A DNA stretch of 64,000 nucleotides, from positions 32,001 to 96,000 of the IMG/VR virus record IMGVR_UViG_3300017991_000003; one strand, written 5' to 3'. Each line of letters opens with the position of its first letter. Within the stretch, counting starts at the first letter, position 1. Origin of the DNA: a virus. Position numbers and translations under genes: made by a program. Under the pieces are notes generated by a model, which worked only from the letters and a program-made list of their open reading frames with translations, was not told the DNA's origin and did no database searches. Shown here one piece after another: positions 6,113 through 63,814 of the stretch.

Positions 6113-6125
6113 GACTAGGTGACCG

Positions 6126-12750: not shown

Positions 12751-12770
12751 TGTGGCACTGGCTCCCAGTG

Positions 12771-13619: not shown

Positions 13620-13620
13620 G

Positions 13621-14359: not shown

Positions 14360-14465
14360 GATAGGCCCGCTCGCGGCCCGGTCCGCCTTCTTCAGGATGC
14401 GTAGAAGGCGTTTCTTGGTCGGGGCGGTCAAAAACGCCCGACAGTCTTGACCAGTGCTTCGGTAG

Positions 14466-14678: not shown

Positions 14679-14680
14679 GT

Positions 14681-23379: not shown

Positions 23380-23396
23380 GGCATTGGTAGGGGGTG

Positions 23397-23804
23397 TCAG
23401 TAAACAGTGGTCAGGATCGGGGTAGCCATCGACAAGTCAAAGACCCAGGTCATCTCCAGGTACCGGTGCTTGGCCATAGGTCTTCCGTGATGGTTGTGCT
23501 GCGCAGGCTTGGTCTGTTCAACAGCCTCCAGAGCCGTTCGGCAAAGCCAGGTATGGAGCCCCTCATTCGTCTCTTCGTCGCGGTGCTTGAGGAACACGTC
23601 AAGGCAGCGGATCGATGCTCGATCCACCGCGTGGGCGGTGACTTCAAGGCTTGTGGCCTGCATCAACATGCCGCGCCGCTTCAGTTCTTCAGCAGCGTCT
23701 TTCGCTTGATCGTGCTCTACACGCACCATCCAGCGCAGGTACCCAGGCGGTACACGTGTGATCGGCTCACCTGTATGTTTTCCGCGTTGCATCACAACCG
23801 CCAT
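23397..23804 (-). CDS. Hypothetical protein
   Basis: 135-aa ORF. Confidence 0.5.
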   Translation of the reverse strand: MAVVMQRGKHTGEPITRVPPGYLRWMVRVEHDQAKDAAEELKRRGMLMQATSLEVTAHAVDRASIRCLDVFLKHRDEETNEGLHTWLCRTALEAVEQTKPAQHNHHGRPMAKHRYLEMTWVFDLSMATPILTTVY

Positions 23805-26971: not shown

Positions 26972-27485
26972 AGTCGGACTCCGCGCTCGGGGGGTGAATG
27001 AAGGACTCGAAGTCCACGTTCTCCGGCTCGATGAGCGCTCGGAAGGCGTGGATCTGGCGGATGCGACGCCACGAGACTCCGCCCATCTCGGGGTCGATCG
27101 AGAGGATGAACTCGTCGGGGTCGAACGTCGTCTCGGCCACGAGGCCGTCGACGAAGAGATTGACTGCGTCCTCGATCCGGTTGGGATCGATCTCGATCAC
27201 GTCGGCAGGCTCGGTCGGGCGGGCGATCTGGATGCAGTCGTTGAAGTGGTACATCTCGATCTTGCCTCGATAGACCACACGACCTCCGCTCTGCATGCAG
27301 TTGCGGATGCAGAGCTTGAGCAGGGCCATCGAGACCTCGTGCGCCTGCGTGATACAGGCTCTGGGCTTCTGGGCGAAGTAGGGATTGCGCTTCATGGAAG
27401 GAAACCGAAAGGGGTAGAAGCCGAGGAAATCATCAATGTCCCTAGACACCTCTGCCCAGGCTCGAGTGATTGGATCAACGTCCAT
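26934..27485 (-). CDS. Hypothetical protein
   Basis: Start taken at internal Met (MDVDPITRAW), 5 nt after the upstream gene stop. Confidence 0.5.
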   Translation of the reverse strand: MDVDPITRAWAEVSRDIDDFLGFYPFRFPSMKRNPYFAQKPRACITQAHEVSMALLKLCIRNCMQSGGRVVYRGKIEMYHFNDCIQIARPTEPADVIEIDPNRIEDAVNLFVDGLVAETTFDPDEFILSIDPEMGGVSWRRIRQIHAFRALIEPENVDFESFIHPPSAESDFDLLHSGAEEGD

Positions 27486-36486: not shown

Positions 36487-39027
36487 TCAGTTGCGCATAG
36501 CTAGCTCTTCTTCCCGCGTCATGACTCGGGAGGTGCTGGGCTGGGTGATCAGCGGACCACGATCGGGGATCAAGGTCTTGCACCACTCCTGCTCCTCCGG
36601 GAGCAGACGCGCACAGCTGGAGGCCAGCTCAACATCGCCGTTCTCGTCGGCTTCGACGAAGTCGGCCCAGTTCTCTGCGGTGAACAACCGATCCTCGCCC
36701 TTGATCCGAGCGAAGAAGGTGCCGACGGGCGGGACGTTGTCATCGCCCTCTTCAGCCCAGTTGTTGTAGCAGATAGAGGTGTCGGCCAGGATCGGGACAG
36801 ACAGCCCGAACCAGTCGTACTCCATGACGTACTTGATGAGCATGGCCGCCTCTTTGGCGAAGCGGATCGGGCACGCATAGATCAGCTCGTCGTGGACCTG
36901 CCCGATCACCCGTAGGCCTGGGTATCGAGGCAGCACGTACTTGCGGATGATGAACATGTTGGCCTTGATCATGTCCGCCGAGGAGCCTTGCACCTTGGCG
37001 TTCAGGATCTTGCCGGGCATGACGTCGTTGTCGTTGAAGTGACGGTGACGTCCGCTGATCATCAGGAAGCTGCGTTGACCTTTCTGCCACTTACCCTGTA
37101 GCGCCTGCATGTAAGCAGGGATGCCGCTGTAGGTCTGGAAGAAGCCATCACGCCAGAGCGCTGCCTTTTCGATGTCGTACTCGCCCTTAGGCGTGAGTAG
37201 CGGCACCATACGGGCGAACTTCTCCGGCCCCATCCCGTAGTTGAAGCCGAAGTTGACGTTCTTGGCCGGCTTCCGCGGGATCCCGAGGCTCTGCGAGGTC
37301 TTGGCGTGAACATCGCCCGTGTGAAACACGAGCCCGTGGCTCGTGATCGTCTCGTGGTAGACGTTGCGTAGGTTGAAGTCGCCAGTGAAGTGAGAGATCA
37401 CTCGAAGCTCGACCTGGCTCTGGTCGCTGACGATCAGGCAGTAGCCCTCAGGTGCCCACTCATCAGGGGGCGGGCACACGAAGACTTCACGTAGCGCCGG
37501 GCCCAGGCCCTGGATCCTCTCGTCGAAGTGCGCGGGCTTTTTGCGGGAAGGGATGTTCTGGAGGTTGGGTCCAGAACTGCTGAACCGGCCAGTATCCGTA
37601 CCGAAGGAGTTGAAGCGACCGTGCACTTGACCATCCCCGGAGTCTTCAACCTTCTCGCCCATGCTTTCGACATAGGTGCTGAGGAGCTTCGAGACAGTTC
37701 GGAAGTTCAGGATGGCCTGCCCGATCGGATGATCGAGCATGCTCAGCGTGGTGGTGTCCGTGCTGATGTACTGCTCCCGGATCTCGTCCGGGATACGGTC
37801 CGGGTTGCGTAGGTCGACTACGCAGTCTTCCCAGAAGATCCGACCGTTGGCAGGGTTGCGCTTCATGTACCCCTGCTCGAGGCACCACTTGACGCCGTCC
37901 TTGGTCAGCTTCGGTAGCGGGATACGCTCCCCGTTGATCCAAGCCCACCGGAACGTGGGAGGCGTCAGGTACAGCGTCTGGAACAGGAGGGTGCAGAGCT
38001 GCTTCGGGCTGTTGGGGTTGAACTCCTGCTTGGCCAGCTCGTAGCAGTGGGAGCGGAACTCCTCGACTAGCGGACGCATGATATTGCCGCGCTTCTTGAG
38101 CTCCTCGAGATCGATCGTCATACCGGCGATCTCCATGCCGATGGTCTGCCACCGGACATCCATCTCGATCTCCATCCACGTACCTGCGCCATCCTTGCGG
38201 ACCTCGGCGAGGAGCTTACGCAGGAGGGGGAACAGGTAGCGGGCGTCGTCGCGGGCGTAGTCTTTGAGGAGCTTCAGAGCCTGCGCGCGCAGGTTGGCGA
38301 TCTTGGTCTCCGCTCGGGCTGTGTGGGCTCGGACGTAGTCCTCGTACTTCCACCGCTCGAGCTCATCAAAGAGTTCATCCCGCCAGGCCAAGAGAGCGCC
38401 ATTCTCCTCTTTCGACAGGTCCTTGCCGGTGATGCCGCGCTCGTCCAACACTTTCTTGCGGATGGCGTTCCAGGACATGGCAGGGTCGTCGAAGGACGGG
38501 TACGGCCGCCACCAGGTCCCAGGCTGGGACCACTTCTCCAGGTTGTCCTTGTGCATGGCCAGTCGCGCGTTAGTCAGATCGATCTCACGCAGGAGCGGAT
38601 TGTCGAGCGCCGCCTCCTCGTAGGTTGTCATCTGCTTACGCAGCCATTTCTGGACCAGCAGCTTGAGGCCCTTGGGACGCTCCTCGTCAACTGCCCAGGC
38701 GTAGCCGAGCGTGTCGAGGCAGCGGGCCTGCCACTCCTCGTACAGCACCATGCCGGCTCGATGGCCGACGATCACGTCGTAGGGGGCGTTGTGCGCCATC
38801 CCGAACAGCTTCGGGTTCGTAGCTAGGCGCTTGAATGTCTCGCACAGCTCAGGCGTGATCTCGAAAGCCCCGGCGCGGTTAGGTGTCGCCAAAGCTAGGA
38901 CGGTGGGTCGCGCCGTCCACGCGTTCTTCGCGTCCTCAGAGCGTCCGGTCTCCGACTCCGTCTCGAAGTCGAACGCAAAGTAGCCCGTCTCGAGGGCGTC
39001 GGCTTCAATCAGATGTAGAGGATCCAT
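36487..39027 (-). CDS. Family A DNA polymerase with 3-prime to 5-prime exonuclease domain
   Basis: Exo I FAFDFETE; motif A SDQSQVELRV; motif B RKPAKNVNFGFNYG; motif C QVHDELI. Confidence 0.92.
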   Translation of the reverse strand: MDPLHLIEADALETGYFAFDFETESETGRSEDAKNAWTARPTVLALATPNRAGAFEITPELCETFKRLATNPKLFGMAHNAPYDVIVGHRAGMVLYEEWQARCLDTLGYAWAVDEERPKGLKLLVQKWLRKQMTTYEEAALDNPLLREIDLTNARLAMHKDNLEKWSQPGTWWRPYPSFDDPAMSWNAIRKKVLDERGITGKDLSKEENGALLAWRDELFDELERWKYEDYVRAHTARAETKIANLRAQALKLLKDYARDDARYLFPLLRKLLAEVRKDGAGTWMEIEMDVRWQTIGMEIAGMTIDLEELKKRGNIMRPLVEEFRSHCYELAKQEFNPNSPKQLCTLLFQTLYLTPPTFRWAWINGERIPLPKLTKDGVKWCLEQGYMKRNPANGRIFWEDCVVDLRNPDRIPDEIREQYISTDTTTLSMLDHPIGQAILNFRTVSKLLSTYVESMGEKVEDSGDGQVHGRFNSFGTDTGRFSSSGPNLQNIPSRKKPAHFDERIQGLGPALREVFVCPPPDEWAPEGYCLIVSDQSQVELRVISHFTGDFNLRNVYHETITSHGLVFHTGDVHAKTSQSLGIPRKPAKNVNFGFNYGMGPEKFARMVPLLTPKGEYDIEKAALWRDGFFQTYSGIPAYMQALQGKWQKGQRSFLMISGRHRHFNDNDVMPGKILNAKVQGSSADMIKANMFIIRKYVLPRYPGLRVIGQVHDELIYACPIRFAKEAAMLIKYVMEYDWFGLSVPILADTSICYNNWAEEGDDNVPPVGTFFARIKGEDRLFTAENWADFVEADENGDVELASSCARLLPEEQEWCKTLIPDRGPLITQPSTSRVMTREEELAMRN

Positions 39028-40554: not shown

Positions 40555-41574
40555 CTAGAGGAGGGAGGAGTATCGATCTGAGAGGTCTTGTTGCGTCAGG
40601 TACTTCGGGTCCTGATCGAGGTGGTACAGCATGCTAGGCACGCCGTGCTTCGTCAATACTTTGTTGACATTTTTGGCGGCATTCTGACCCTCGACATCGG
40701 GGTCCAGGAGGATGCCCACCAGGGACGGTTCGGAGGCTCGAATCAGCTTGGCCTTCTCCGCTGAGAAGGCGAGCCCGTTGATACCCGCGGCACGAGCCCC
40801 AAGCTGGACCAGGTGCATCGCATCAAAGGGGCCTTCAACCAAGGACAGGGGCTTACCGGCCCCATAGGGCAGTAGATGCTCGCCGAACAGGTGACGGCCG
40901 CTCACGAAAGGCCAGATCGTCCAGTACTTGAGGCCGTTTCCTGCTAGGGGCCGAACCTGTGCTCCGACGCAGCGAACGATGCCGACGTCTGGAGACACCA
41001 GGATGGGGAATACGAGGCAGGGCGCCTTGGTCGTTTTCGGGTTGTCGTATCGGTCGGTCCCCATGCCGTCGTCGGTGTAACCGGCGGGGACGGTGGTGCA
41101 GTAGAACTGCTCGATGGCAAAATCGGGATCGACCCCCTTAGCGGCCAGCACATCCCGTCCGAGGGGGAGCATCGGCACACGTAGCAGGTCAGCTAGGAAC
41201 ACGGTGTAGTCCGTGTCCGGGGTCGTACGGGTCTGTCGAGTGACGCCGGCAGCGGAGAAGTCCAGGCTTTCTAGCGCCAACTCCCGCTCTCGGGCCTTCA
41301 TCTGGAGGGCCAATCCCGCATACTGACCACCACTGAGGCGGTTCAGCTCGAGGAGCGTATCCCCCAGTGATGACAGGTGTTTACACGCGTGGCACTTCAG
41401 GAGGGTCACTCCAGGACCCACCGTCGCGGTCATCGACGGCCTTCGATCAGATCCTTTCCCATGAGTCCACGGAGCCAGCAGGCAGGAAAACTTCACATGG
41501 CGGTCCCCCGCGGGTCGAAGCTCCCCCGCTTGGGGCAGCTGGGCGAGGACGGTTCGGAGCTCTACCTCTTGCAT
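40555..41574 (-). CDS. DnaG-like DNA primase (zinc-binding plus TOPRIM-like)
   Basis: CHC2-like CLLAPWTH...CHACKH; LVEGPFDAMHL and LLDPDVEG TOPRIM-like acidic motifs; start set at internal Met to avoid overlapping the divergent fibre gene. Confidence 0.65.
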   Translation of the reverse strand: MQEVELRTVLAQLPQAGELRPAGDRHVKFSCLLAPWTHGKGSDRRPSMTATVGPGVTLLKCHACKHLSSLGDTLLELNRLSGGQYAGLALQMKARERELALESLDFSAAGVTRQTRTTPDTDYTVFLADLLRVPMLPLGRDVLAAKGVDPDFAIEQFYCTTVPAGYTDDGMGTDRYDNPKTTKAPCLVFPILVSPDVGIVRCVGAQVRPLAGNGLKYWTIWPFVSGRHLFGEHLLPYGAGKPLSLVEGPFDAMHLVQLGARAAGINGLAFSAEKAKLIRASEPSLVGILLDPDVEGQNAAKNVNKVLTKHGVPSMLYHLDQDPKYLTQQDLSDRYSSLL

Positions 41575-41632
41575 CTTTTCGGGTTCTCGGGGTTGGACTT
41601 CATAAGCTAAGACAGGGGAGGACCCCACACAC

Positions 41633-44600
41633 ATGGCCGATAACGTCCAGCTCTACGACGCGCATCTAAACCTCTGGACCCTCAGGACATCCGAGGACAC
41701 AGAAATCCACACGCCGCACCACGTGTCGCGGCTGGCGGACGGGGAGGGGCGCTTCTACAGGCCCGGACGGCCGGTACCTGTGTCGATCTACGGGACGGAC
41801 GGGGTCGAGATCAACATCGAGGCCGGCTCGATCGCTGTCAGCACAGACCACAACGAGGACTCAGTAGCGGTCTTCGGGTCGTCGACCCCTGAGGGGCTGG
41901 AAAACTTCAGGTCGCTGGTGGTGGACCCCCAGGGGCACCTCCAGACCACAGTGGTCTCAGCGCCTGGGGTGGAGCCCGTCGGGGACTCGCCCGACGCGGG
42001 GCAGCTAGGTACGGTCATCCTAGGGGTCCAGGTAGGGGCAACGCCAGCTAGTCAGGTCACGGGGGACGGTCGGACAGCCCCTCTGATCATGGACGATCGG
42101 GGCCGGCTCTTCGTCTCTTTCGGCAACTCCGTCGCGGTTCTGCCCTTCACGCAAAAGGGTGACCTACTTACTTATGACGGATCTGACGAAGTTGTCCTGG
42201 GCCCGACGGTCGACGACGCGCTTCTGACACTGGACTCCAGTACCAGTACCGGCCTCAGGTGGGTGAGCCCGGTGACGAGCTCCCCCAGCCCCGTGCTCTT
42301 CCTACGCGAGGATCTAACATGGGCTCTGCCCTCAGCAGGGGCACCGGGCGGGGCTGCGGGCGGAGACTTGGGCGGGACCTATCCGAACCCGTCTGTGGTC
42401 GCTATCCAAGGGATTTCCACTTCTGCGGCTGCGCCAACGCCTGGGCAGACCTGGGTGTACACCGGCAGCGCTTGGAGTCCGGGAAGCCCGGCTACCGGAG
42501 CTGCTACGGACCACGGGACGCTCACAGGGCTCCTCGACGATGATCACACCCAGTACATCCTGGCTGATGGCTCTCGAGACTTCTCAGGCTCAATCGGCAT
42601 GGGTGGGAATGAGATCACGGATGTGGCCTCTCCTATCCTCGTATCCTGGGCAGCTAACAAGGGTTACGTTGATGATCAGATCACCGCGTCCGTCATCACG
42701 GACCACGGCGGGCTAGGCGGGCTCGGGGATGACGACCATACCCAGTACGTGTTGGTGGCTGGCACTCGTGCGTTCACGGGCGATCAGAGCCTAGGCGGTA
42801 ACAAGATCACGAGTCTGGGGTCCCCGACCACCGCAAGCGATGGAGCCAACAAAGGTTACGTCGACGCTAACGTGGTCACGGACCACGGCGCTTTGATCGG
42901 GCTGGGGGATGATGACCACACCCAGTACATCCTGACTGCGGGGACTCGAGCCTTCAGTGGTAACCAGAGCCTAGGCGGCAACCTGATCACAAGCCTAGGC
43001 TCGCCTACTACCGCAAGTGGTGGTGCTAACAAGGGTTACGTTGACGCGGCTATCACGTCGGCAGTGATCACGGATCACGGAGGGCTTGGCGGCCTGACGG
43101 ACGACGACCATACGCAGTACGTCCTGGTCGCAGGTACTCGAGCGTTCACAGGCAGCCAGAGCCTGGGCGGTAACCTGATCACGTCGCTAGGGTCTCCTAC
43201 TGTTGTAAGTGACGCAGCTAACAAAGGTTACGTTGATGCGCAGATCCCGACGAGCCTACCCCCTAGCGGGGCTGCTAGTGGTGATCTAGGCGGCACGTAC
43301 CCCGGGCCTACTGTGGTGGCCATTCAAGGCACCGGAGTCAGTGCAAACGCTCCAAGTACTGGTGATGGCCTGGTTTACACCGGAGCGGCTTGGAGTCCGA
43401 CCGCGGTCTATCGACCTGGCGGGACGGATGTGGCTGTGGCAGACGGGGGCACCGGGGCGTCGGACGCGTCCACGGCGCGTAGCAATCTAGGCCTGACCAT
43501 CGGGCTCGACGTCCAAGCCCACTCCGCAGTTCTTGACGCTACAACGGCCAGTTACACAACCGCGGCCGAGGGTAAGCTCTCGGGCATCGAGACCAACGCT
43601 GATGTCACGGACACAGCCAACGTGACGGCCGCTGGCGCTGTCATGATCGGCACAACGGCCGCGGCCGGGGACCTGAGCGGTACCTACCCGAGCCCGACGG
43701 TCGTGGCCATTCAGGGGACTGGCGTCTCGAGCACTGCGCCGAGCTCTGGGCAGGCCCTGATCTACTCCGGCACTGTCTGGAGCCCCAGCACGCTCCCCAG
43801 CGGGGTGACGGACCACGGGGCCCTGACCGGACTCGGAGACGACGACCATACCCAGTACATCCTGGTTGGTGGCACTCGCGCCTTCACGGGCAACCAGTCG
43901 ATGGGCGGCAACCTGCTCACGTCGTTGGGGAGCCCGGTGGCGGTAACAGACGCAGCTAACAAGGGTTACGTCAATGCCTCGATCACCGCGGCCGTCGTCA
44001 CGGACCACGGGGCCCTTGACGGGCTGGCCGATGACGACCACACCCAGTACCACAACGACGCTCGGGCGCTGACGTGGTTGGGGACGCGCGACACAGATGA
44101 CCTGGACCCGAGCGCCACCCGTCTCTACATGAGCCCGGGTGAGCGCACCAAGCTCGCCGGGATCGAAGCGCTTGCCGATGTGACCGATGCGGCCAACGTG
44201 GCCGCGGCCGGCGCTGTCATGGTCGGTGACGCTGCGGGCGGTGATCTTAGCGGTACCTACGCAAACCCGTCCGTGGTCGCGATCCAGGGTACGGGTTGCT
44301 CTTCAGCAACGCCGACCGCCGGCCAGACCTGGGTCTACTCCGGGTCCCAGTGGAGTCCTGGCTCACCCGCTGTTGGTGGCGCGTCAGATCACGGAACCCT
44401 GACCGGGCTGGGCGACGACGACCACACTCAGTACATTCTTGTTGACGGTACACGGGCCTTCACAGGCGCAGTTAGTCTCGGTGGGAGCCAGATCAACAGC
44501 CTGGCTTCGCCCACGCTCCCAGCAGATGCAGCCAACAAGGGCTACGTCGACGACCAGATCCCGACGAGTCTACCCCCTAGCGGGGCAGCGTCTGGCGACC

Positions 44601-48208: not shown

Positions 48209-49174
48209 CTAGATCTGGTACGCGTCCAGCGGCGTGCCGCGGGTCATCCCCAGCCTGAAGCCAGCCGCCTTCGCGTGACCGCCACCGGAGATGGCGATGC
48301 CGCGGTCGAACAAGTCGCGCGCGACGGCCGAGACGTCGATGTCGTTGTCTGCGTGAGTGCGGAGACTGACGATAAGCTGATTGGTATCTCGATCAATGCG
48401 CCAGTTGCCCACAATCGCATCGCCCATCTTGTTGTAGAGAAGCTCAGCAGCCTCAGAGATGTAACGATCCTCAGGAGCCAACCACATCTGGTACCCGCCG
48501 ATCTCGTACAGCGAGACGTTGTAGTTGCTCTCGGCTGCTTGCTTGTAGATGTGCCGGCGGATGCCTCGACCCTCGGCCACAAGCCGGTCCCGGCCATCCG
48601 GGCAATCAAGACTTTGGTTGAGCATGTCCCAGTTCTCCCAGTGCCGGGGATAGCTCTGGATAGCAGCGGCAATCTCCTCAGTGTCCGGAAGCTCCTTCAG
48701 CCATAGATCACGATCACGGATGTACTCGATGAGCGGGGTCGAGTGCTCGAAGAGCAGACGATTTGTCAAAGACGCTCCGCACTCCTCCATGTCGAACACG
48801 GCGAAGTCCCGGCATCCGCTGAGCGCATCCTTGGCGGTCTTGTGGTGATCGATGACCACCAGGTTCTTCATGCGCTCGAGCCAAGCGAGCAGGACATCAC
48901 GGCCCCAAGAGAAGTCCACGATGATGATCTGCCAACCATCCGGGACCTCTGGCACGGTGCCGTCGTAGTTGACTCCGCTGAAAGTCAGCTGGGTCTTACC
49001 GTCCCACAACGTATCGAACCCCTTGCAGAGATCCGTGAAGCCGTGGGCCATGAACCACTTGCGAACAAGCCACGCAGCCGTGAAGCCATCGGAGCAGGGG
49101 TCGTGATAGAACACGACTGTCGGGACGTCCAGGAGGATGCGGACGCCAGGCTCACTTCGGGGCTTGATAGACAT
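48209..49174 (-). CDS. DHH-family phosphoesterase (NrnA/RecJ-like)
   Basis: Motif I YHDPCSDG, DHH motif VVIDHHK, DHHA1 GGGHAKAAGF. Confidence 0.65.
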   Translation of the reverse strand: MSIKPRSEPGVRILLDVPTVVFYHDPCSDGFTAAWLVRKWFMAHGFTDLCKGFDTLWDGKTQLTFSGVNYDGTVPEVPDGWQIIIVDFSWGRDVLLAWLERMKNLVVIDHHKTAKDALSGCRDFAVFDMEECGASLTNRLLFEHSTPLIEYIRDRDLWLKELPDTEEIAAAIQSYPRHWENWDMLNQSLDCPDGRDRLVAEGRGIRRHIYKQAAESNYNVSLYEIGGYQMWLAPEDRYISEAAELLYNKMGDAIVGNWRIDRDTNQLIVSLRTHADNDIDVSAVARDLFDRGIAISGGGHAKAAGFRLGMTRGTPLDAYQI

Positions 49175-49562
49175 GAGGAAGTTTCTCGAGGATGAGGTAG
49201 ATGTCGCCAGCGTCCCAGGCAGCGGGATCGGTGAGGGCCTTGAGTACCTGAGTAGACGCCTTCAAATCATCCGGCGCGTAGGGGTCGCCGGTCTTGGCGT
49301 TCGACCACATTTTGGGCGTCAGTCGAAGCGGGCCGGCCCCAACCGGGGAGGACGCAATGTCGCCGCGGTACAGGAGCACGCTGATGACGTAAGCGATCTC
49401 TTGATCATCGAGGTGCTGATCCTCGACAACCTCGGAGGGCATCGACTTCGTCAGCTTGGGACTCACGTAGGTACTGAACAGGTCCCAGGACACGAAGCCG
49501 AGGAACCCGACAAGCAGGAGCGCTACTACGGTAGCGGTAACCCTAGCGATGAAGGTTTTCAT
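49152..49562 (-). CDS. Secreted or membrane-anchored protein (N-terminal signal/TM)
   Basis: Start at MKTFIARVTATVVALLLVGFLGFV; adjacent to the lysozyme-like gene. Confidence 0.5.
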   Translation of the reverse strand: MKTFIARVTATVVALLLVGFLGFVSWDLFSTYVSPKLTKSMPSEVVEDQHLDDQEIAYVISVLLYRGDIASSPVGAGPLRLTPKMWSNAKTGDPYAPDDLKASTQVLKALTDPAAWDAGDIYLILEKLPHVYQAPK

Positions 49563-50198: not shown

Positions 50199-51593
50199 CT
50201 AGTAGGCAGCCTGACCACCGCTGCTCGCCATGTCCTGGACAGGGCCGAGCTGCGCGAACCGCATGTCGTAGAGATCCCATTGAACACGATAGGGTTGGTC
50301 GACCGCACCGTCTCGGACCTTGCCGAGCTTCATGTCGATGACGCGGGCGTTGTTACCGGCATCCTTCGGCGGTACCAGGAAGACGAGGTTGTTGGAGTCG
50401 TGCGAGATGCTCTGGCTGAAAGCCACAGCATCAGCGTTCGACCGGGCCAGCGTGCCTTCATTTCGGCGCAGCTGCGTGGCCAGCATGTAGTGACGGTTGG
50501 ACATCAGCGTATGCAGACGCATCTGCCGCATGTTGCCCTCCACCTTCTGCCAGCGCTCCTTACCAGGGCCCTCCATGTAGTAGAAGCCGTCGATCAAGAC
50601 CAGGTCCGCGCCAAACTCCTCAGCCTGTGCGGCAACCTGATCAGGAGTCGTAGCCTGGTTAGGGCCCACGATGCGCAGGTTCTCACCAACGCGAGCGTGC
50701 GGCCCGTCTGCTTTCAGGCTACGCAATGCCTCGAAGTAGGCCGCCTTCTCCACGTCACTTAGCTTCTGCTTCATGAGGCGGTTGAAGCTAGTGCTCGAGA
50801 GCACCGCGGCTTGGCGTCGAGCCACATCGATGGGTGCCATCTCCAGACTGACGATCAAGACCCGAGCGCGGGCGGCGTCCTTCTGCTCCTGCGTCCACGC
50901 CGGGATGTCGGGTGGGCGGTGGAAGATGTAGGGATCTCCCAGGAGGCCGGCGGCACTGTTGAGCACGATGAACCAAGTCTTGCCGAGGCCGGTAGGAGCC
51001 ACACAGCTGGTGATCTGCGCAGGGTGCCAGCCCCCAAGCTGTTCCTGAATGAACAGGAACGGACAAGGGATGCCGAGCTTCACGCCGGCCAGCCGATCGT
51101 TGTAGTCCTGCTCGAGATCCTCAGCGTACTCTCGGAAGTCCTTGATCTCCGTCTTGTGTGCCGAGTACCTAGCTTGCAACGTATGAGCGTACAAGGACAT
51201 CGCGTCCTTGATGTCGAACGGGTCGGTGCGCTCGGTCAGCTGCTTGTGAAGATCCTGAAGGCTCTCTAGCACATCTACACGCACCGCCTCCTTAGCGACT
51301 TCGTCGTAGAGAACCGAGATGCTCGCTTCCGGGATCTCAGTACCAGCCAAGATCGTGGGAAGCTCAGGCCAGGCGCGCTGCGCCGTGTCAGGCGTAGGAA
51401 GCTCGTTGTACTGTGCTCGGTACCCGACGACCCACTCGATGATCTCCGTCATCGGCTCTTGAAAGAACCCGGGGTTGAGTCCGTTCTTGGCGACGTGGTG
51501 GTCGAAGGCGGCTAGGTTCCGGTCACTCAGGATCTTGGTCAGGAAGAGAGCCTCGACCCTGTCTCGAGAGTTGACGTTGGTGAACCCGGTCAC
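50199..51593 (-). CDS. DnaB-like replicative DNA helicase
   Basis: Walker A APTGLGKT, SLEM motif VLIVSLEM, LVLIDGFYYM and LATQLRRNEG segments. Confidence 0.75.
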   Translation of the reverse strand: MTGFTNVNSRDRVEALFLTKILSDRNLAAFDHHVAKNGLNPGFFQEPMTEIIEWVVGYRAQYNELPTPDTAQRAWPELPTILAGTEIPEASISVLYDEVAKEAVRVDVLESLQDLHKQLTERTDPFDIKDAMSLYAHTLQARYSAHKTEIKDFREYAEDLEQDYNDRLAGVKLGIPCPFLFIQEQLGGWHPAQITSCVAPTGLGKTWFIVLNSAAGLLGDPYIFHRPPDIPAWTQEQKDAARARVLIVSLEMAPIDVARRQAAVLSSTSFNRLMKQKLSDVEKAAYFEALRSLKADGPHARVGENLRIVGPNQATTPDQVAAQAEEFGADLVLIDGFYYMEGPGKERWQKVEGNMRQMRLHTLMSNRHYMLATQLRRNEGTLARSNADAVAFSQSISHDSNNLVFLVPPKDAGNNARVIDMKLGKVRDGAVDQPYRVQWDLYDMRFAQLGPVQDMASSGGQAAY

Positions 51594-52159
51594 TGGTATA
51601 GCCCCAGCTCAATAGCTGTTCGGTACTCGCGATGCACCGGATAGGTCTCGATCACCTCTCTCGGGCAGATCACTAGCGTGACCTTGTTTGCAACTGATAG
51701 GCGCGGTGTGAGGATGCCTGACACACTTCGACAGAACCTATCAGAGACGTCGTACGGCGGGAGACCTGTCAGGACGGCGAAAGGACAAGCACGGAGCTCT
51801 TCCCACATGGTCAGCTCAGCGTTTTCGATGCGCGGCTGGTCACGGATAATGGCTCGCTCGGCTGCCGCAATGTCACACCAGAGCAGCCAGTCAGCCCGCC
51901 ACCGGTAGAGCGCGTACAGGGTCTTGAGATCGGCTAGAAACTCGGCATCAAGCTCGACGGCGTGGACGTATCCAGGCTGTTTTGCTAGCCGCGGTTCCCA
52001 ACGTTCTTGCTCAGCCGGGGTAGGTTCGGGCAGATCTTGGAGGGCCTGGATGACGGGAGCAGGGAACCCGTAGTCCGCCAACCAATCAGAGCCAGTCCCT
52101 CTGATCCTCTTCAAGTTGTCGCAGACCCCGTGGTCCGCGGGCCAGATTCGATAGCTCAT
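51590..52159 (-). CDS. Hypothetical protein
   Basis: 189-aa ORF; GTGA overlap with the helicase start. Confidence 0.5.
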   Translation of the reverse strand: MSYRIWPADHGVCDNLKRIRGTGSDWLADYGFPAPVIQALQDLPEPTPAEQERWEPRLAKQPGYVHAVELDAEFLADLKTLYALYRWRADWLLWCDIAAAERAIIRDQPRIENAELTMWEELRACPFAVLTGLPPYDVSDRFCRSVSGILTPRLSVANKVTLVICPREVIETYPVHREYRTAIELGLYQ

Positions 52160-56900: not shown

Positions 56901-57127
56901 TAAAAAGCTCCTTGGTGAATCAACCGGAGCAGAGCTCCGGAGGTGAAAGGTGCCCCACCCGCCGAGAGGCGAGTGGGGCGGTTGCCAGGATGCACACGAA
57001 CTACTGGAGTGGTGGACCTGAGCTGAGCCGGAGTATGGCACCGGATCGAGCCGGATTCAGTGACTGCGTATAGCTCGTTGGGTTTGTCTACCTCGTGGAT
57101 GAGCTCGGAGTCACGACTCGAGCGGAG

Positions 57128-57289
57128 TCGCCTGCCTCGAGCTCATTGTTGCCATCATCTCGTCTGGTTGATGAGATGGCGGCGGCTCCTCCTCTCCTGT
57201 TATCCTGCGCTTACAGTATTCTCGGTGCCCGAGCTCGACCCATCTCGTCAACCTGACGCGATGATGGCAACAATGAGCTCGAGGCAGGC
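57128..57289. repeat. 31-bp perfect inverted repeat pair separated by 100 nt
   Basis: 57128-57158 is the exact reverse complement of 57259-57289, verified base by base. Confidence 0.9.
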
Positions 57290-57438
57290 GCCGCAGCGAG
57301 AGGCGCCGTGGCTCAGCCTCGTGGTGGGCAAACCCACGAGTTATTCGCAGACACTGAAGCCGGCCCGGTTGACATGCTCTGGCTCAGCTCAGGGTCTACC
57401 CGTAGGTGCAAGTGTGGCCGAGGTTGCTGTTGCGCTAT

Positions 57439-57457
57439 CTGCGGCGATGCGCCGCAG
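57439..57457 (+). repeat. Hairpin motif copy 1 (CTGCGGCG-ATG-CGCCGCAG)
   Basis: 8-bp stem, 3-nt loop; shares core GGCGATGCGCCGC with two other copies. Confidence 0.8.
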
Positions 57458-57785: not shown

Positions 57786-57802
57786 GGCGGCGATGCGCCG
57801 CC
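57786..57802 (+). repeat. Hairpin motif copy 2 (GGCGGCG-ATG-CGCCGCC)
   Basis: 7-bp stem, 3-nt loop; same core. Confidence 0.8.
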
Positions 57803-58040
57803 TGAAGACGTTGTGGATTAGGCCTCCGGTAGGCCCGTTCCAGTCTTTCTACTCCCTTGGAAAGGTAGTCACCTCTTGCGAGGCTGGCTGGCTACCTTGG
57901 TATCGGCGCTCGTAGAGACTACCCGGTCACACGCCCGCCGGAGGCGGGCTTGTGGACGCGTGGTCTCAACGTAATGTGTCACAGGAGACAGCTCGAGGCG
58001 CAGCTCGAGCGGGCCTCCGGCCACAGTTTCTATCACTTGA

Positions 58041-58053
58041 CGGCGATGCGCCG
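58041..58053 (+). repeat. Hairpin motif copy 3 (CGGCG-ATG-CGCCG)
   Basis: 5-bp stem, 3-nt loop; same core. Confidence 0.75.
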
Positions 58054-58265
58054 CCGCGGAAGTCAGATGGGCTAGCTAGACCACTTCTTTCCTTGCTCCG
58101 CCGAAGATGTACCTGTTGGCAGCCCTGGTACTGGGCTTTTGGCTATGAAGAACGGATCATCGGGGCCAACTACCCTCCTGCTCTTCGTGCCTGTTGGTAC
58201 CGGCCTTTGGCCGGCAGCCGAGCCTGCTCCGGATTATGTGGAGCAGACTCGGTTCACTTGGTGCG

Positions 58266-58733
58266 CTAGCCGCGCTCCTTGACGGGGACCTTCATGATGA
58301 GGACGTCGCCCTCCTTGAGGGTCATCCCGTCGGTCACCTCCTGGCCGCCGATGTGCGGCTTCGACCCCTCGGGGGTGCCGAAGCGGCGAGCGTACTCGGT
58401 CCGCGCGTCGGCGACCGAGGTGCCGGCGGCGACGTTGAGGCGGCCGGGCTCGCCCAGACCGTCGGTGGCCGCGGCGGTGACCGTGGCGACCGGACCCGCC
58501 TGCGGGGTCTCCTGGGTCGTCGGCGCCGTCGTGGCGGTGGGAGCGGTGCGCGTCACGGCGACGGCCACCTCGGTGTCCGTGGGCAGACCCGTGGTCTGGT
58601 CCCACTTGGTCGGATCCGAGTGGTCGACCTCGTAGAGCACGGGGTTGCCGGCCGCGTCGTTCGCGGGGGAGTCGGCGTAGCGGATGCGACGGTTGAGGGT
58701 GTCGAACGCGGGGCGCTTGATGTTTCCGGTCAT
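58266..58733 (-). CDS. Beta-grasp (ThiS/MoaD/ubiquitin-like) domain protein with N-terminal extension
   Basis: C-terminal ~60 aa (GRLNVAAGTSVADARTEYARRFG...TLKEGDVLIMKVPVKERG) matches the ThiS/MoaD pattern by eye; ends in a single Gly; no clear ribosome-binding site. Confidence 0.5.
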   Translation of the reverse strand: MTGNIKRPAFDTLNRRIRYADSPANDAAGNPVLYEVDHSDPTKWDQTTGLPTDTEVAVAVTRTAPTATTAPTTQETPQAGPVATVTAAATDGLGEPGRLNVAAGTSVADARTEYARRFGTPEGSKPHIGGQEVTDGMTLKEGDVLIMKVPVKERG

Positions 58734-58756
58734 GGTGCAGAGGGTGTGTAGAGGGT

Positions 58757-59491
58757 TCAGGTGAGTTGGAGGGAGTGCTGCGTCTGCGGCGCGGCTTTCC
58801 CACCGAGCACGTCGACCACGATGGTGTTGAAGCTGGGCTTCATCGGGTCGTCGATCGTCAGGACCTGGGCGAACCAGGTCTGCAACATGGCCTGGGCGAC
58901 CGCTTGGTTCGCCAGAGCCAGTTGCGGCTGCGTCTCGTACTCCTGGGTGCAGTCCAGCTGATCGGGAAACTCGTTCCCAGGAGTCTCATGACGCATCTCG
59001 GGGTTCCGTTCGGTGAGCGACGCGCAGACGTCCTCGCTGTTGATGCGGCGCCAGAGCATGGCCTGGCCGCTGTCGAGGTCGTTGCCGCCGTCCACCCACG
59101 TGAACTCGTCGAGCTTGTCGAGCTGCTCCTCGAGGAAGCAGCGGGTCTTGTTGTTGTCCACGCAGCCGAACAGCGTGACGCCCTCGACCAACCACTCACG
59201 GTGGTGGTTCAGGAGCCGATCGCTCAGGTACATGGAGATCACCCGGACGTCCAGGCCCGGGAAGGTGTCTCGCAGGGTTCGGGCCATGATCTCGGCTTTG
59301 TTCTGGCCGATGGCCGCGGCGCCGTGCTGGCGCGCGAGGTTGTGGTCCTCGACCTCGTCGCCGTCGATGATGAAGAGGGTCGGATTCTGGATCCGATCCC
59401 CCACCATCTCAGGCGGGTGGGCGAGAAGACGAGCGAGCGGCTCGGCTAGGTGGTAGCCGATGCCGCCCGCTCCGAGGATGGCGTAGATCAT
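58757..59491 (-). CDS. E1-like adenylyltransferase (ThiF/MoeB family)
   Basis: Start at MIYAILGAGGIG (Rossmann GxGxxG); IIDGDEVEDHNLARQ matches the E1 Arg-finger; GCVDNNKTR matches the conserved DN..R segment. Confidence 0.7.
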   Translation of the reverse strand: MIYAILGAGGIGYHLAEPLARLLAHPPEMVGDRIQNPTLFIIDGDEVEDHNLARQHGAAAIGQNKAEIMARTLRDTFPGLDVRVISMYLSDRLLNHHREWLVEGVTLFGCVDNNKTRCFLEEQLDKLDEFTWVDGGNDLDSGQAMLWRRINSEDVCASLTERNPEMRHETPGNEFPDQLDCTQEYETQPQLALANQAVAQAMLQTWFAQVLTIDDPMKPSFNTIVVDVLGGKAAPQTQHSLQLT

Positions 59492-59495
59492 GAGG

Positions 59496-61394
59496 TCAGG
59501 GGTAGATGGGGAGGGTGGCTTCTGTTTCGGACTTGTTGCAGAAGGCGATCTCCTCGAGGAGGACATCGTCTTCCATGTCGTCGGGGTCCTCGAGGACTCC
59601 GTCCATCTCGAGCACCAGTCGATCCATCTGATCGAGGATCTCTTGGTAGTCCTTGCGGTAGGGAATGCCGGCGTTCTGGGCCGCCTTGCGGACGACAAAG
59701 TAGGTCAGCCGGAACCACTCGAGCAGGACGCCGTCGGAGTCCTCTCGCGAGAATGCCTCGACGTAGCTCAGGTTGGTCTCGATCACGGTCTCGATCACGG
59801 TGTCGATCGACGTCTCGGGGAACACAGTTTTCACCGTCGGGTCGGCGTAGACGTATTTCGAGAGCTTGTCGATCCGGGCATCCAGTGCGATCGACTTGAA
59901 TAGCCGGTCGAGAAGGTCGTCGATGCGATTCATCACCTCGTCGATGACGTCTCGAACCAGCATGCTGTAGAGGGTCTGACGACTCTCGGATGCGCTGTTC
60001 TGCGCTTCTTCGACGATCTCTTCGATCGTGGGGGCGTTATCGAACCACTCACTGGTCGAGGCGTGGTTCATGAGCAGATGCAGGGCTAGGGCCGTAGCGT
60101 TGCTCGACGTCAGACTGTCCTTGAACGAGGTGCAGTACGCCCACACGGCTCGTGGGAAGGTCGTTTGCTGACCCTCCGCCTTCTTGATCAGCTGAAGGGG
60201 GTAGTGCGCTTGCGGTGAGATCACCATGCCGTAGAAGCCGGTGTGCATCCGCTGGATGCGGAACTTCTTATCAGCGACCAGCGAAGGGCCAGAGGCTGTC
60301 TTGCTGACAGGTACCAGTGAGGTAGTCGTCTTCTTCGTCGTCTGGCCAAGGCCACCCTGCGCCCCCGTACCCCCAGTCTTGCCGCCAGGAGTCGAAGGCG
60401 TACCCGCTTTGCCGCCGGTCCACTTTTTCGAGCCATAGCCGCCATACCTGCTGGTCTTGGCTTTCTTCTCCGCCTCCTTGATGGCCTCGCTGGCCAACTT
60501 GAACGTGGTAAGACAACGGGCGGCCTCGCCCATCCTGTCCTTCCAACGCCCCAGGCTTTCCATCGACCCACAGAAGGTCATCACAGTGCTCGTGTCGACG
60601 TCCTCGAGCTTGTCGACGCTGAGACCGACGGCGAGCTCGTCGGGATCGACCCCGGCCTTCAGCATGGCTTCGCACAGTCCGGGGTGGGCGACCCGGTTCA
60701 GCCACAGCTGAATCAGATCCAGGCCGCCCTCCACGAAAGGGATGTCGAACAACTCCTCGAGACCGGTCGCGTGGCGGATGCCCTGCGCCTTCTCGTTGCG
60801 GTAGCCGGGGAGGGCGGTGACGAACGACGGGCACACCGAGAAGGGCGGCTTGTCCACGTTCCCGAAGGTGATGTGGAAGCCCGTCTGGTTGAGCTCGTTG
60901 GCGTCGTCGGTCGAGCTGTGGTAGGCTCCACCAGCGCCGTGACTGTGCGCGGTGCCGACGCAGATGAACTCGACAAGCTCTCCATCCTCGCAGATGGGGC
61001 AAGCGTTGCCGGCTTCGAGCTCGATCGAGCCGATGCGACAGGTCGTGCAGAAGCTCTTGACGTTGGGATCGTACTTCACGTGCCCCGCGGAGGCGGTGTA
61101 CCACGGCGGACTGACGAGGGTGTAGGCGTCGTCGACCGGCCCTCGGTGGAAGAGCACGAAGGCCTCGGTCTTCCACAGGCGGTAGACCTCGGCGAAGTAG
61201 CGGTAGACGAACATCGTCTCCGCCATGGAGATCTTGGGCCAGTTGGTGAGGTCCAGGTCACGCTGGATCTGGTCGGTTTCACCGAGGTCCTCGGCCCGGG
61301 CGGGAACGAAGGCCTGAGCCCAGGCGGCCCCGCCTGGGCCGATGGTCTTCAGCACGTGGGCTTGGTTGCCCTTGTAGTAGATGTCGGTGGTCAT
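59496..61394 (-). CDS. JAB/JAMM metallopeptidase-domain protein with zinc ribbon and large C-terminal domain
   Basis: Exact JAMM signature HSHGAGGAYHSSTDD preceded by CTTC...CPIC; GC3-rich codons checked across the gene; start at internal Met giving ATGA overlap with upstream gene. Confidence 0.7.
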   Translation of the reverse strand: MTTDIYYKGNQAHVLKTIGPGGAAWAQAFVPARAEDLGETDQIQRDLDLTNWPKISMAETMFVYRYFAEVYRLWKTEAFVLFHRGPVDDAYTLVSPPWYTASAGHVKYDPNVKSFCTTCRIGSIELEAGNACPICEDGELVEFICVGTAHSHGAGGAYHSSTDDANELNQTGFHITFGNVDKPPFSVCPSFVTALPGYRNEKAQGIRHATGLEELFDIPFVEGGLDLIQLWLNRVAHPGLCEAMLKAGVDPDELAVGLSVDKLEDVDTSTVMTFCGSMESLGRWKDRMGEAARCLTTFKLASEAIKEAEKKAKTSRYGGYGSKKWTGGKAGTPSTPGGKTGGTGAQGGLGQTTKKTTTSLVPVSKTASGPSLVADKKFRIQRMHTGFYGMVISPQAHYPLQLIKKAEGQQTTFPRAVWAYCTSFKDSLTSSNATALALHLLMNHASTSEWFDNAPTIEEIVEEAQNSASESRQTLYSMLVRDVIDEVMNRIDDLLDRLFKSIALDARIDKLSKYVYADPTVKTVFPETSIDTVIETVIETNLSYVEAFSREDSDGVLLEWFRLTYFVVRKAAQNAGIPYRKDYQEILDQMDRLVLEMDGVLEDPDDMEDDVLLEEIAFCNKSETEATLPIYP

Positions 61395-61816
61395 GTGGTG
61401 ATCAGGGGTGGGTGGAATCGACGTAGGACGGTCAAGACCGCCTGGGTGTCTTCGTTGATGTCTTGCTCGGCTAGTAGGTGATCGAGCCGGCGCATCCAAT
61501 CACGTAGGGTCGTGAGCTGCTCGGGGCCCATGCTCGCCGGAGGGTCGACGACAGGACGTCGGTCGCTCTCGTCTCGGATCAAGTTGAAGCGGATGTTGTT
61601 GATCCTTCCACCGTCTAGCGCAACTGGATAGGTGCGTTGGAAGATCTGACCAAGAGCCTCGATCATCTCTCGAGTAAGACCCGTCCCCTCAAGATCGAGA
61701 AGGTGCGGTCGGTTCTCGAGGATCCGAGATAGAAGCTCCTCGCGTCTCCGGATAATGGCCTGGTGATCATTGTGTCGATCACGCGCGCCTTGCACGGTGT
61801 CCAGAATGGTGGTCAT
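61391..61816 (-). CDS. Hypothetical protein (operon member)
   Basis: 141 aa; ATGA overlaps at both ends (61813-61816 and 61391-61394). Confidence 0.55.
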   Translation of the reverse strand: MTTILDTVQGARDRHNDHQAIIRRREELLSRILENRPHLLDLEGTGLTREMIEALGQIFQRTYPVALDGGRINNIRFNLIRDESDRRPVVDPPASMGPEQLTTLRDWMRRLDHLLAEQDINEDTQAVLTVLRRFHPPLITT

Positions 61817-62655
61817 CGGACCACCTCTCGCCACTTCTCGGCCGCCGTACCGAGCTCCCGGCCCAGTACGATCTCATCGACGTCCGTCTGCCAGGTCATG
61901 ATGCGATCCTCGGTCCAGCGCTGCCATCGACAGAACTGCCAGAGCATGACAGTGTTCATGTTCAGGCCCAGATCACGCCGCCTGTCGTAGTCGGTGTAGT
62001 CACCTTCGGGGAGTTGCTCGAAGTACGGGACCTCTCGAAGCGCTTCGGGAACCTCAAACCCCTCAGGGAGCGGCCCGCTGAAAGGTGGCATGGTCAGGGA
62101 GTGCTCGTAGTGCGCGTTGTAGCCGGACTCGTTGATGAGCTTGAGGACCATCTCCGGGATCGACTGGAGCCCGTTGTACCGGTACTGGCGGAACACAGCA
62201 CCCGTGCACATGCCTCCCGTATCTTGCTGGTTCGGTAGGAATGATTTGTACAGAACCGGGGTGTACCCCGCCTCCAGATGCGGCTGCTGCTTGGTGAAGA
62301 AGCAGCGGGCATCGGAGAGGCGCCCGTCGTAGATCGAGATGATGAAGACGCGCGCAGGCATGGCGACCAGGAATCGAAGACCCTCCGGCCAGCCGCGGTT
62401 CTCGCGGACGTCGATGGAGATCCTCTCAGCCCGCGGAGGCACGACTGCCATGAAGTGCTCGTTGTGGGCATCCTTGGTGTGTGCCAGGATGTTTACGTAG
62501 GGGTGGTACGGAAAGAGGGCGCCAGCGCGCCGGCCTCGTTCCTCGAGGGCGGTCACGACGTCTTCTTCCCGCGTGATGCGGTTGACGTGAACCGTTTGAT
62601 GGATCACGTGACCATCGACGATGACGAGTCGATCGTGGGTTTCGAAGTTGGTCAT
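61813..62655 (-). CDS. Hypothetical protein (operon member, candidate effector)
   Basis: 280 aa; ATGA overlap with the RT stop at 62652-62655. Confidence 0.6.
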   Translation of the reverse strand: MTNFETHDRLVIVDGHVIHQTVHVNRITREEDVVTALEERGRRAGALFPYHPYVNILAHTKDAHNEHFMAVVPPRAERISIDVRENRGWPEGLRFLVAMPARVFIISIYDGRLSDARCFFTKQQPHLEAGYTPVLYKSFLPNQQDTGGMCTGAVFRQYRYNGLQSIPEMVLKLINESGYNAHYEHSLTMPPFSGPLPEGFEVPEALREVPYFEQLPEGDYTDYDRRRDLGLNMNTVMLWQFCRWQRWTEDRIMTWQTDVDEIVLGRELGTAAEKWREVVR

Positions 62656-63755
62656 GGGAGGTACGCGCGTGTCTCGGCGCTGTAGTTGGTGGGGGTGTTG
62701 TGGTGCACGTCTTGCGCGACACGCAGTTGTAGTTGGAGCGAGGCTCCTTGATCAGGGTTGATGAAGTTGACGTGGTTGACGAGGCCGGCGAGGTGGTCAA
62801 AGTTCACCGGCACAGGGCCTCGGTGCGTCAGCTCTCCCCCACGGGGACAGCGGCCGAAGTGCGCGTCGCAGATGATCTTGTGCAGCCGGGCGCGAAGCGC
62901 GCGCCGTCGAGGCCTGGGAGCGCTTAGCTTCTCGTTGACGACGACGCCGCAGACCGTCATGCGACTGCCGATGGAGCGGAATCGGATCTTTTCGGGGGCG
63001 ACCTTGTAGCCCAGCTTTTTCAGGAACCCGATGACGGGGTACTGGAACTGGTACAGCTTTCTGTAATCCGCCGTGAAGGTCATGTCGTCGCTATAGCGGG
63101 TGTACGCGATCGGCAGGAGTCTGATCTGAGTCTGCGTCTTTCGCCGGCGCTCTCCGTGGTTGTCGACCCACCGCATCGTGGGGTTGGTCCGCCAGGACTC
63201 GATCAGCTTCAGGATGCCGAAGTCCACCTGAGCCCCTGCCAGGTTGGAGAGGAAGGGGGACGTGGGGGCTCCTTGTGGTAGGCCACCATCCAAGAAGCAG
63301 GCGCGTTTGACTCTGTCAAGGAAGAGCCTGTCGGCACGTGACATCGGTTGCATGTACCCCCTGGTCAGGAAGTACTCCAGCTGCTCGAGGACGACGTGGG
63401 GAGACACGGACGGGAAGAAGTCCCGCAGATCGATGTCCAGCTTGTACCGGTGACCTACATGCGGGGCGGCGTTGGTGTGGATACCACGCTTGCGGACGTA
63501 GGCATGAGCTGCTGGGGAGGCCCCGATCCCGAGCGCTTTGAGCTCGCTGAGGATGAGCTTTTGAGCAGCCATTAGCTCCGGGCAAGGGATCTGGAGCTTT
63601 CGCATCTTCTGACGTGTCCGACCGTTCGAAAGCGTCTCGAGTACCGGGACTTCTCGACCATCCCGGGTACGCCTGGTCTTGGGGATTCGTGCGAATCGGT
63701 AGTGCTCAGCTTGAGCGGTGTCCGTCAGGACATTGAATGATGGGTAGCCAGCCAT
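62652..63755 (-). CDS. Reverse transcriptase, retron-type
   Basis: TNAAPH (NAxxH), YKLDIDLRDFFPSV, GLPQGAPTSPFLSNL (QGxxxSP), YTRYSDDMTF (YxDD), RMTVCGVVVN (VTG-like); GAGGG ribosome-binding site 6 nt before ATG. Confidence 0.8.
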   Translation of the reverse strand: MAGYPSFNVLTDTAQAEHYRFARIPKTRRTRDGREVPVLETLSNGRTRQKMRKLQIPCPELMAAQKLILSELKALGIGASPAAHAYVRKRGIHTNAAPHVGHRYKLDIDLRDFFPSVSPHVVLEQLEYFLTRGYMQPMSRADRLFLDRVKRACFLDGGLPQGAPTSPFLSNLAGAQVDFGILKLIESWRTNPTMRWVDNHGERRRKTQTQIRLLPIAYTRYSDDMTFTADYRKLYQFQYPVIGFLKKLGYKVAPEKIRFRSIGSRMTVCGVVVNEKLSAPRPRRRALRARLHKIICDAHFGRCPRGGELTHRGPVPVNFDHLAGLVNHVNFINPDQGASLQLQLRVAQDVHHNTPTNYSAETRAYLP

Positions 63756-63814
63756 GATCTACCCTCAGATGACGGCGCAGATTGCGCTCAAGGCAAGAAG
63801 TAGCATGTGCTTCA

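Follow-up and report, generated by a model that had tools for sequence, protein, structure and literature searches.

What does a phage-like genome do with a ubiquitin-like protein, an activating enzyme and a reverse transcriptase (RT) encoded side by side? The question is raised by a 64,000-nt stretch of viral DNA, positions 32,001 to 96,000 of the IMG/VR record IMGVR_UViG_3300017991_000003 (hereafter the window). On its minus strand, at 58266-58733, it encodes a 155-aa ubiquitin-like (Ubl) protein next to a gene for a ThiF-type activating enzyme (E1). A first-pass annotation, made from the sequence alone, took this protein for an atypical carrier or a substrate-like fusion rather than a free modifier, pointing to its single terminal glycine, its N-terminal extension and the missing Shine-Dalgarno (SD) sequence. 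Our analysis leads to a different reading, which we hold with moderate confidence: the protein is probably the ubiquitin-like modifier of a conjugation cascade carried by a large phage-like element, and the finding would thus be a phage-borne, RT-linked Ubl conjugation system.

The ubiquitin-like protein and its C-terminus

The Ubl gene and its parts are as follows.

58266-58733, minus strand: Ubl gene (155 aa), with the C-terminus ...PVKERG directly before the stop
58575-58733, minus strand: conserved N-terminal domain (aa 1-53)
58494-58574, minus strand: Thr/Ala/Pro linker (aa 54-80)
58269-58493, minus strand: beta-grasp domain (aa 81-155), last residues K152-E-R154-G155
58266-58268, minus strand: stop codon
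58734-58756, minus strand: C-rich spacer of 23 nt from the E1 stop to the Ubl start, without SD

The open reading frame (ORF), its PVKERG end, the linker and the SD-less spacer are as first described. The gene is real: its third-position GC is 0.95, against an overall GC of 62.5% for the window, and the identical protein was called on five independent metagenome assemblies (up to 193 kb) in addition to the IMG/VR viral contig.

The Ubl protein had no matches in Pfam, PADLOC, PHROGs, NCBIfam or the PDB sequences, and among 5.8 billion proteins a word-indexed search retrieved the query alone. An exhaustive phmmer search over 1.84 billion cluster representatives returned 15 proteins at E <= 0.001, including the query itself and a protein with repeated Ubl-like units (P0035), so that the family is very rare at 15 representative clusters. 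Thirteen of these 15 matches are full-length Ubl relatives of 125-161 aa, mostly aligned end to end, and a profile search added six further relatives. The family alignment used below comprises 20 sequences.

This alignment is tripartite, consisting of a conserved N-terminal domain, a variable Ala/Pro/Thr-rich linker and a C-terminal domain, some 70 residues long, that ends in K-x-R-G. The consensus of the N-terminal domain is RPxFNPxxGxRIRYADSPxxDxxGxxIxYGEDRSxPxxWDQxTGLP. At the other end, K152, R154 and G155 are invariant (20/20), and G155 is the final residue in 16 members, the remaining four carrying the tails L, V, AIAA and NIAA. A conserved glycine at the C-terminus or close to it, where activation takes place, is characteristic of conjugatable modifiers of the ubiquitin, SAMP, BilA and BubA type, and it is likewise found in the related loci L028, L029 and L013-15 described below.

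AlphaFold2, run on the family alignment, gave a mean predicted local distance difference test score (pLDDT) of 74.8. In the model, the C-terminal domain reads b(82-87)-b(98-102)-a(107-118)-b(125-128)-b(144-148), residues 101-150 having a pLDDT of 83-92, and this predicted b-b-a-b-b topology supports the ThiS/MoaD/ubiquitin-type beta-grasp proposed earlier from the residue pattern. A Foldseek match to the Ubl domain of the phage tip attachment protein J was also obtained. Pfam ThiS weakly matched one of the 20 members (E = 0.0025), and the protein studied here not at all. Residues 54-78, within the linker, are disordered in the model, and residues 10-50 have a pLDDT of 91-93 yet are nearly without regular secondary structure. 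Among the loci examined, this N-terminal domain, which has no known counterpart, occurs solely in fusion with this Ubl.

The single glycine and the N-terminal extension lose their force as arguments against a free modifier when other bacterial Ubls are considered. According to the papers on the Bil and Bub systems, bacterial Ubls react through one conserved glycine (G229 in BubA and a universally conserved one in BilA) and bear diverse N-terminal domains; in BilA, the Bil paper reports, the glycine is followed by 0-9 non-conserved residues that are trimmed by a JAB protease. One conserved terminal glycine is therefore the rule in characterized bacterial Ubl systems, and all three traits, namely a single invariant glycine, short tails after it and an N-terminal extension, are present in this family.

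A six-gene cassette headed by a reverse transcriptase

The Ubl gene closes a tightly packed operon of six genes on the minus strand. The five genes that precede it are listed here in their order.

62652-63755, minus strand: retron-type RT (367 aa), first gene of the cassette, with YSDD and the NAxxH-like motif NAAPH
61813-62655, minus strand: candidate E2-like conjugating protein (280 aa), with invariant L140-x-N142-Q143...C150
61391-61816, minus strand: small protein (141 aa), from gene calls
59496-61394, minus strand: JAB/JAMM metalloprotease (632 aa), Pfam Prok-JAB at 2.9e-5
58757-59491, minus strand: ThiF-type E1 (244 aa), with GAGGIG, R54, D112 and an invariant crossover-loop Cys181

This order and spacing are repeated in L005, L007, L008 (and a second contig with the same protein), L009/L010, L028, L029, L031, L032 and one further contig. 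At least 10 distinct RT-linked cassettes were found, with E1 identities to the window of 37-63% and locus GC contents of 47-66%. The E1 gene adjoins the Ubl gene in all cassettes, and the RT is strictly linked with the E1 and Ubl genes in all ten cassettes of the clade. This conserved context supports the functional tie between the beta-grasp protein and the adjacent E1 that had been suspected at the outset; the JAB, E2-like and RT genes farther upstream had been overlooked. Together, the JAB, the E2-like gene and the Bil/Bub-type traits of the Ubl point to a genuine conjugation cascade.

The Ubl position itself varies among sister cassettes. In L028, the final gene of the RT-linked cassette encodes a bare 76-aa Ubl that matches only the C-terminal domain of the window protein and ends in GTKDRG-stop, and an 84-aa gene occupies the same position on another contig. 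In L029, the same beta-grasp (...AKQRG-stop) stands behind an unrelated Lys/Glu-rich N-terminus. These bare Ubls and swapped N-termini indicate that the constant module is the beta-grasp ending in (K/R)-G and that the N-terminal part is a swappable accessory, which again leaves the extension without weight against a free modifier. A more distant arrangement without RT is found on three IMG/VR contigs of about 40% GC, where E2-like, JAB and E1 genes accompany an 81-aa Ubl ending in GEKG-stop.

L013 6557-11005: RT-less cassette
L014 6671-11006: RT-less cassette
L015 6721-11006: RT-less cassette

These cassettes include an ORF of about 210-245 aa. The E2-like protein of these loci has 450-500 aa, and its C-terminal region, rich in CxxC pairs, is possibly a RING or treble-clef, E3-like module. 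Two tandem E2-like paralogs lie about 7 kb downstream in L013 (17731-19493) and L014 (17936-19718). A further variant is P0035, a polyubiquitin-like protein of 291 aa with five tandem Ubl-like units, each ending in ...AGTKG (L033/L034 8001-8876); its gene is located on a phage-like contig, 3 kb upstream of JAB, ThiF/E1 and RNase H-like (RVT_3) genes (11981-15057), with a holin nearby.

The comparison of cassettes also bears on translation. SD sequences are nearly absent at the cassette genes of all five loci inspected (58734-63785 in the window, and the gene starts of L005, L007, L008 and L009). The notion that an ORF without SD would be untranslated was accordingly dismissed, and a feature that is almost universal in these cassettes does not speak against a free modifier. 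The sequence 5' of the cassette gene starts is A/C-rich, and the scarcity of SD hints at a host or phage lineage with SD-independent initiation or at translational coupling.

We then considered the catalytic equipment of the cassette. The E1 matches Pfam ThiF (9.2e-14), its PDB profile matches span the E1 superfamily, and the family alignment retains GAGGIG, the Arg finger and the Asp of CVDN. In an hhalign comparison (97% probability) with a MoeB sequence, the invariant C181 lies opposite MoeB C187, the crossover-loop cysteine. The Ubl thus has for a neighbor an E1 with adenylation motifs and a putative catalytic cysteine. In the JAB protein, the N-terminal region of about 230 aa contains the invariant residues E77, H150-x-H152, S160 and D163 and an inserted CxxC...CPxC zinc ribbon, and the JAB motif is intact in 9/9 cassettes. 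Its C-terminal region of about 400 aa (59496-60700) is divergent, with a Gly/Thr/Lys-rich low-complexity stretch and no family match.

The motif of the 280-aa protein, L-x-N-Q...C, resembles the 'HPN...C' motif of E2 enzymes without its histidine, and the corresponding motif in the RT-less relatives reads 'HVNLPN...GWICLY'. On this basis it is plausible that the protein is an E2. At least 11 homologs of it were identified. The 141-aa protein evolves rapidly, is poorly conserved among relatives and has no family match in Pfam, PADLOC, PHROGs or NCBIfam.

A working model can be drawn from these parts. The ThiF-type E1 would bind the beta-grasp and adenylate the invariant Gly155, which would then move as a thioester to the crossover-loop Cys181 of the E1 and on to Cys150 of the E2-like protein, with a final transfer to lysines of target proteins through an isopeptide bond. 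The JAB metalloprotease would trim the short tails after the glycine where they are present, and would reverse the conjugates. The N-terminal domain, held on its disordered Thr/Ala/Pro linker, would be an optional accessory that probably supplies the specific function or partner of the conjugate, and the retron-type RT at the head of the operon would be functionally linked to the cascade.

The RT matches Pfam RVT_1 (4.4e-14), and retron RTs are its best matches in each of PADLOC (up to 150 bits), NCBIfam and PHROGs. With YxDD and NAxxH-like motifs, and as the head of an operon of accessory genes, it resembles a retron; however, it stays under the family cutoff (132.5 bits against a cutoff of 235 for NCBIfam retron_St85_RT). 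No msr/msd-like non-coding RNA (ncRNA) was found 5' of the RT, where Rfam gave nothing relevant, the RT start is only 57 nt from the upstream gene, itself a real gene, and no consistent structure occurs upstream of the RT across eight loci. The adjacent msr/msd ncRNA with flanking inverted repeats that would be expected of a retron was thus not found, and no retron type is known to have E1, E2, JAB or Ubl effectors, nor did literature searches reveal one. Within the stretch of about 57 nt 5' of the RT, 40 nt are 80% identical between L001 (4928-4967, just past the window end) and L009 (3029-3068). L009 is the closest relative of the phage in the window, and this stretch is conserved despite protein identities of only about 40-60%; it is possibly a promoter, an operator or a short RNA element.

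Whether reverse transcription and Ubl conjugation are mechanistically coupled in one phage-borne machine is a more speculative matter. We regard such coupling as a tentative idea, on the doubtful side, in which the RT or its cDNA or RNA product would serve as trigger, scaffold or acceptor and the N-terminal domain could mediate the link.

Known systems and alternative functions

To place the cassette among known systems, we compared it with the prokaryotic pathways that contain Ubl, E1, E2 or JAB components. By sequence, it belongs to none of Bil, PRTRC or ThiS/MoaD; in its logic, it comes nearest to the Bil systems and to the '6d'/PRTRC operons of Iyer et al. As described by Iyer, Burroughs and Aravind, '6d'/PRTRC operons encode a Ubl, a JAB, an E1, an E2 without the classical histidine and a rapidly diverging alpha-helical protein. 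This five-part gene content, including the His-less E2 and the fast-evolving small protein, is common to both. In NCBIfam or Pfam, the E1 has its best affinity to PRTRC_ThiF, the JAB to PRTRC_A and the E2-like protein to Prok-E2_D, although the PRTRC scores are far under their cutoffs (55.3 bits against 144.75 for the E1 with PRTRC_ThiF, its best NCBIfam match, and 19.6 bits against 101.8 for the JAB with PRTRC_A). PRTRC_B, PRTRC_C and ParB matches are absent, the Ubl is not recognized by Prok_Ub, and PRTRC operons reside in plasmids or integrative and conjugative elements, whereas this cassette lies in a phage replication module and has an RT added. A PRTRC-like relative, L030, was retrieved through E1 homology.

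For the Bil systems (BilABCD, types I and II; ISG15-like), no sequence relationship of the Ubl, JAB or E2-like protein was found in PADLOC, NCBIfam or the PDB. The Bil E1 is a multidomain protein (IAD, AAD, CYS), in contrast to the short single-domain ThiF of 244 aa found here, and the Bil E2 is of the CEHH type. Bil systems are situated in bacterial defense islands, whereas this cassette belongs to a phage-like element and has a retron-type RT and a small protein in addition. The Bub (6E/DUF6527) systems share a single C-terminal glycine exposed by a JAB, and their Ubls have one to three beta-grasps and diverse N-terminal domains. However, they use fused Ubl-E2, JAB-E1 or E2-E1 proteins, oxyester (Ser/Tyr) chemistry and a DUF6527 protease, while the proteins here are separate and the candidate catalytic residues are cysteines.

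Phages also encode a Ubl together with a JAB peptidase in the tail assembly of lambda and T1, where TAPI (Ubl) is paired with TAPK (JAB-NlpC). This pair lacks E1 and E2 and lies in the tail module, whereas the present cassette has an E1 and an E2-like gene and stands at the head of a replication module. Searches of the literature gave no account of a linkage between an RT and genes for E1, E2, JAB and Ubl, and the combination of Ubl, E1, probable E2, JAB and retron-type RT appears to be undescribed.

Several observations weigh against the conjugation cascade. The E2 assignment is the most exposed: hhalign sets the motif of the 280-aa protein onto the HPN...C active-site segment of UBC with a probability of just 9.7%, Prok-E2_D matches one of five members at E = 0.013, a PDB profile search with this protein came back empty, and its single-sequence AlphaFold2 model is unusable (pLDDT 36). 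No target or E3 is identifiable, and the Bil, Bub and CBASS (cyclic-oligonucleotide-based anti-phage signaling system) models in PADLOC and NCBIfam recognize neither the Ubl nor the JAB nor the E2-like protein. The best PDB sequence matches of the E1 include the non-conjugating adenylases MccB and TcdA. Finally, mean pairwise identity is 49% in the N-terminal domain of the Ubl and 35% in the beta-grasp, so the key function of the protein may lie outside conjugation. Four other explanations were weighed, all of which rank below the cascade.

The imbalance in identity is also an argument for a cargo fusion, the idea kept from the first reading of this gene. By analogy with the CD-NTase of type II CBASS, the functional cargo would be the N-terminal domain, and E1 and E2 would use the beta-grasp only as a handle for attaching that domain to a target or scaffold. 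The confidently modeled N-terminal domain on a flexible linker, seen in fusion with this Ubl only, fits such a role. However, sister cassettes use a bare 76-84-aa Ubl or an unrelated N-terminus, so the cascade has no need for this cargo. We consider a dedicated cargo fusion unlikely, and it overlaps with the conjugation model and is compatible with it.

A sulfur carrier of the ThiS/MoaD/CysO/TtuB type would share the C-terminal glycine of the beta-grasp and the short ThiF/MoeB-type E1, which would adenylate the terminal glycine to form a thiocarboxylate that donates sulfur to an acceptor such as a nucleotide or cofactor. Like Mec+/QbsD, the JAB would then expose or release the C-terminus. Against this, the Ubl ends in R-G and not G-G, and among the called genes and Pfam matches of ten loci there is no rhodanese, cysteine desulfurase, MoaE, ThiG, TtuA or other sulfur donor or acceptor. 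An E2-like protein with an invariant cysteine is always present, an RT is added, and the setting is a phage replication module. This explanation is very unlikely.

A non-protein acceptor is about as improbable, and perhaps a shade more so. In this scheme, once the E1 has adenylated Gly155, the acyl group would pass to a nucleic acid or nucleotide, such as the cDNA or RNA that the RT makes or uses, to yield a protein-nucleic acid conjugate, or would remain as a stable Ubl-AMP of the MccB type. The strict linkage of the RT throughout the clade is consistent with it, as are the MccB-type adenylases among the best matches of the E1 and the RNase H-like gene adjoining another phage Ubl-JAB-E1 cluster. 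On the other hand, bacterial Ubl systems offer no precedent, the invariant cysteines of the E1 and the E2-like protein indicate a thioester relay to an amine, and relatives of the cassette exist without an RT (L013-15). Least probable of all is a beta-grasp adaptor of the RnfH, TGS or Ras-binding type that would regulate the E1, JAB or RT without being activated, since a glycine that is invariant across deep divergence and followed by the stop at once or after 1-4 residues is the hallmark of an activated C-terminus, and an E1 with intact adenylation motifs always co-occurs.

Phage setting and significance

Within the large phage-like element, the cassette occupies the head of the replication module. 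The neighboring genes encode replication and recombination functions, among them an O-like initiator, and related loci additionally hold a ribonucleotide reductase, a holin and tRNAs.

12771-51608, minus strand: replication/recombination module
12771-13619, minus strand: sigma-70-type factor
19915-21525, minus strand: RecA/UvsX-like recombinase
21916-23436, minus strand: ResIII helicase
25025-27196, minus strand: UvrD helicase
36487-39027, minus strand: family A DNA polymerase
40555-41652, minus strand: Toprim primase
48209-49261, minus strand: DHH/DHHA1 nuclease
50199-51608, minus strand: DnaB helicase
57005-57405, strand not assigned: near-perfect hairpin of about 400 nt, in a gene-less 1.3-kb stretch 3' of the Ubl gene

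Most other large ORFs of the window, such as a 1085-aa ORF at 6957-10214, have no family match, which indicates a very poorly characterized phage lineage. An origin from a prophage or defense island was dismissed, as a scan of 185,579 species-representative genomes yielded no close relative of the E1 and megablast gave no match in phage and plasmid collections.

The gap downstream of the Ubl gene lacks sequence conservation and contains several non-coding features. The hairpin at 57005-57405 has a minimum free energy of -242 kcal/mol, compared with -145 +/- 6 for shuffles (z = -15), and its folding is more favorable on the strand opposite the cassette (-270.7 with 9 G.U pairs vs -242.2 with 2). 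At the equivalent position, L007 carries an unrelated AT-rich hairpin of about 500 nt (6011-6535) with the same strand asymmetry (20 vs 0 G.U pairs), which suggests a single-stranded RNA or cDNA form. Such a giant hairpin is present in 2/5 loci; its absence from L005, L008 and L009 rules it out as a universal part of the cassette, and the hairpin of the window may or may not belong to the system. A palindromic motif, GGCGGCGATGCGCCGCC (stem GCGGCG; minus-strand loop CAT), occurs in three copies at 57440-57456, 57786-57802 and 58039-58055, spaced 346 and 253 nt apart. Within the 64-kb window the copies are confined to this intergenic region, with a chance expectation of about 1; they may serve as iterons, processing sites or protein-binding hairpins. 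In the lineage of L008 and L032, a tRNA cluster (Pro-TGG, Ala-TGC, Asn-GTT; L008 8918-8995, L032 8629-8862) occupies the gap past the Ubl gene. Ahead of it is a non-coding stretch of about 480 nt in which the two loci share several conserved blocks. The window itself has no tRNA.

Ubl conjugation in bacteria, as in type II CBASS, Bil and Bub, has hitherto been studied as a defense of the host against phages. If the cascade is active, phages too employ Ubl tagging, and the two growing fields of retron/defense RTs and prokaryotic ubiquitination would be joined in one operon. The R-G end offers a practical way to the targets: trypsin would leave a single-glycine remnant (+57 Da) on target lysines, making them findable by proteomics. 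Should the coupling of RT and Ubl prove true, the cassettes would form a new class of RT-associated systems. The pathway would then be the first complete set of E1, E2, deubiquitinase and Ubl to serve the phage itself, in the control of its replication, in host takeover or in conflict with other phages or host defenses.
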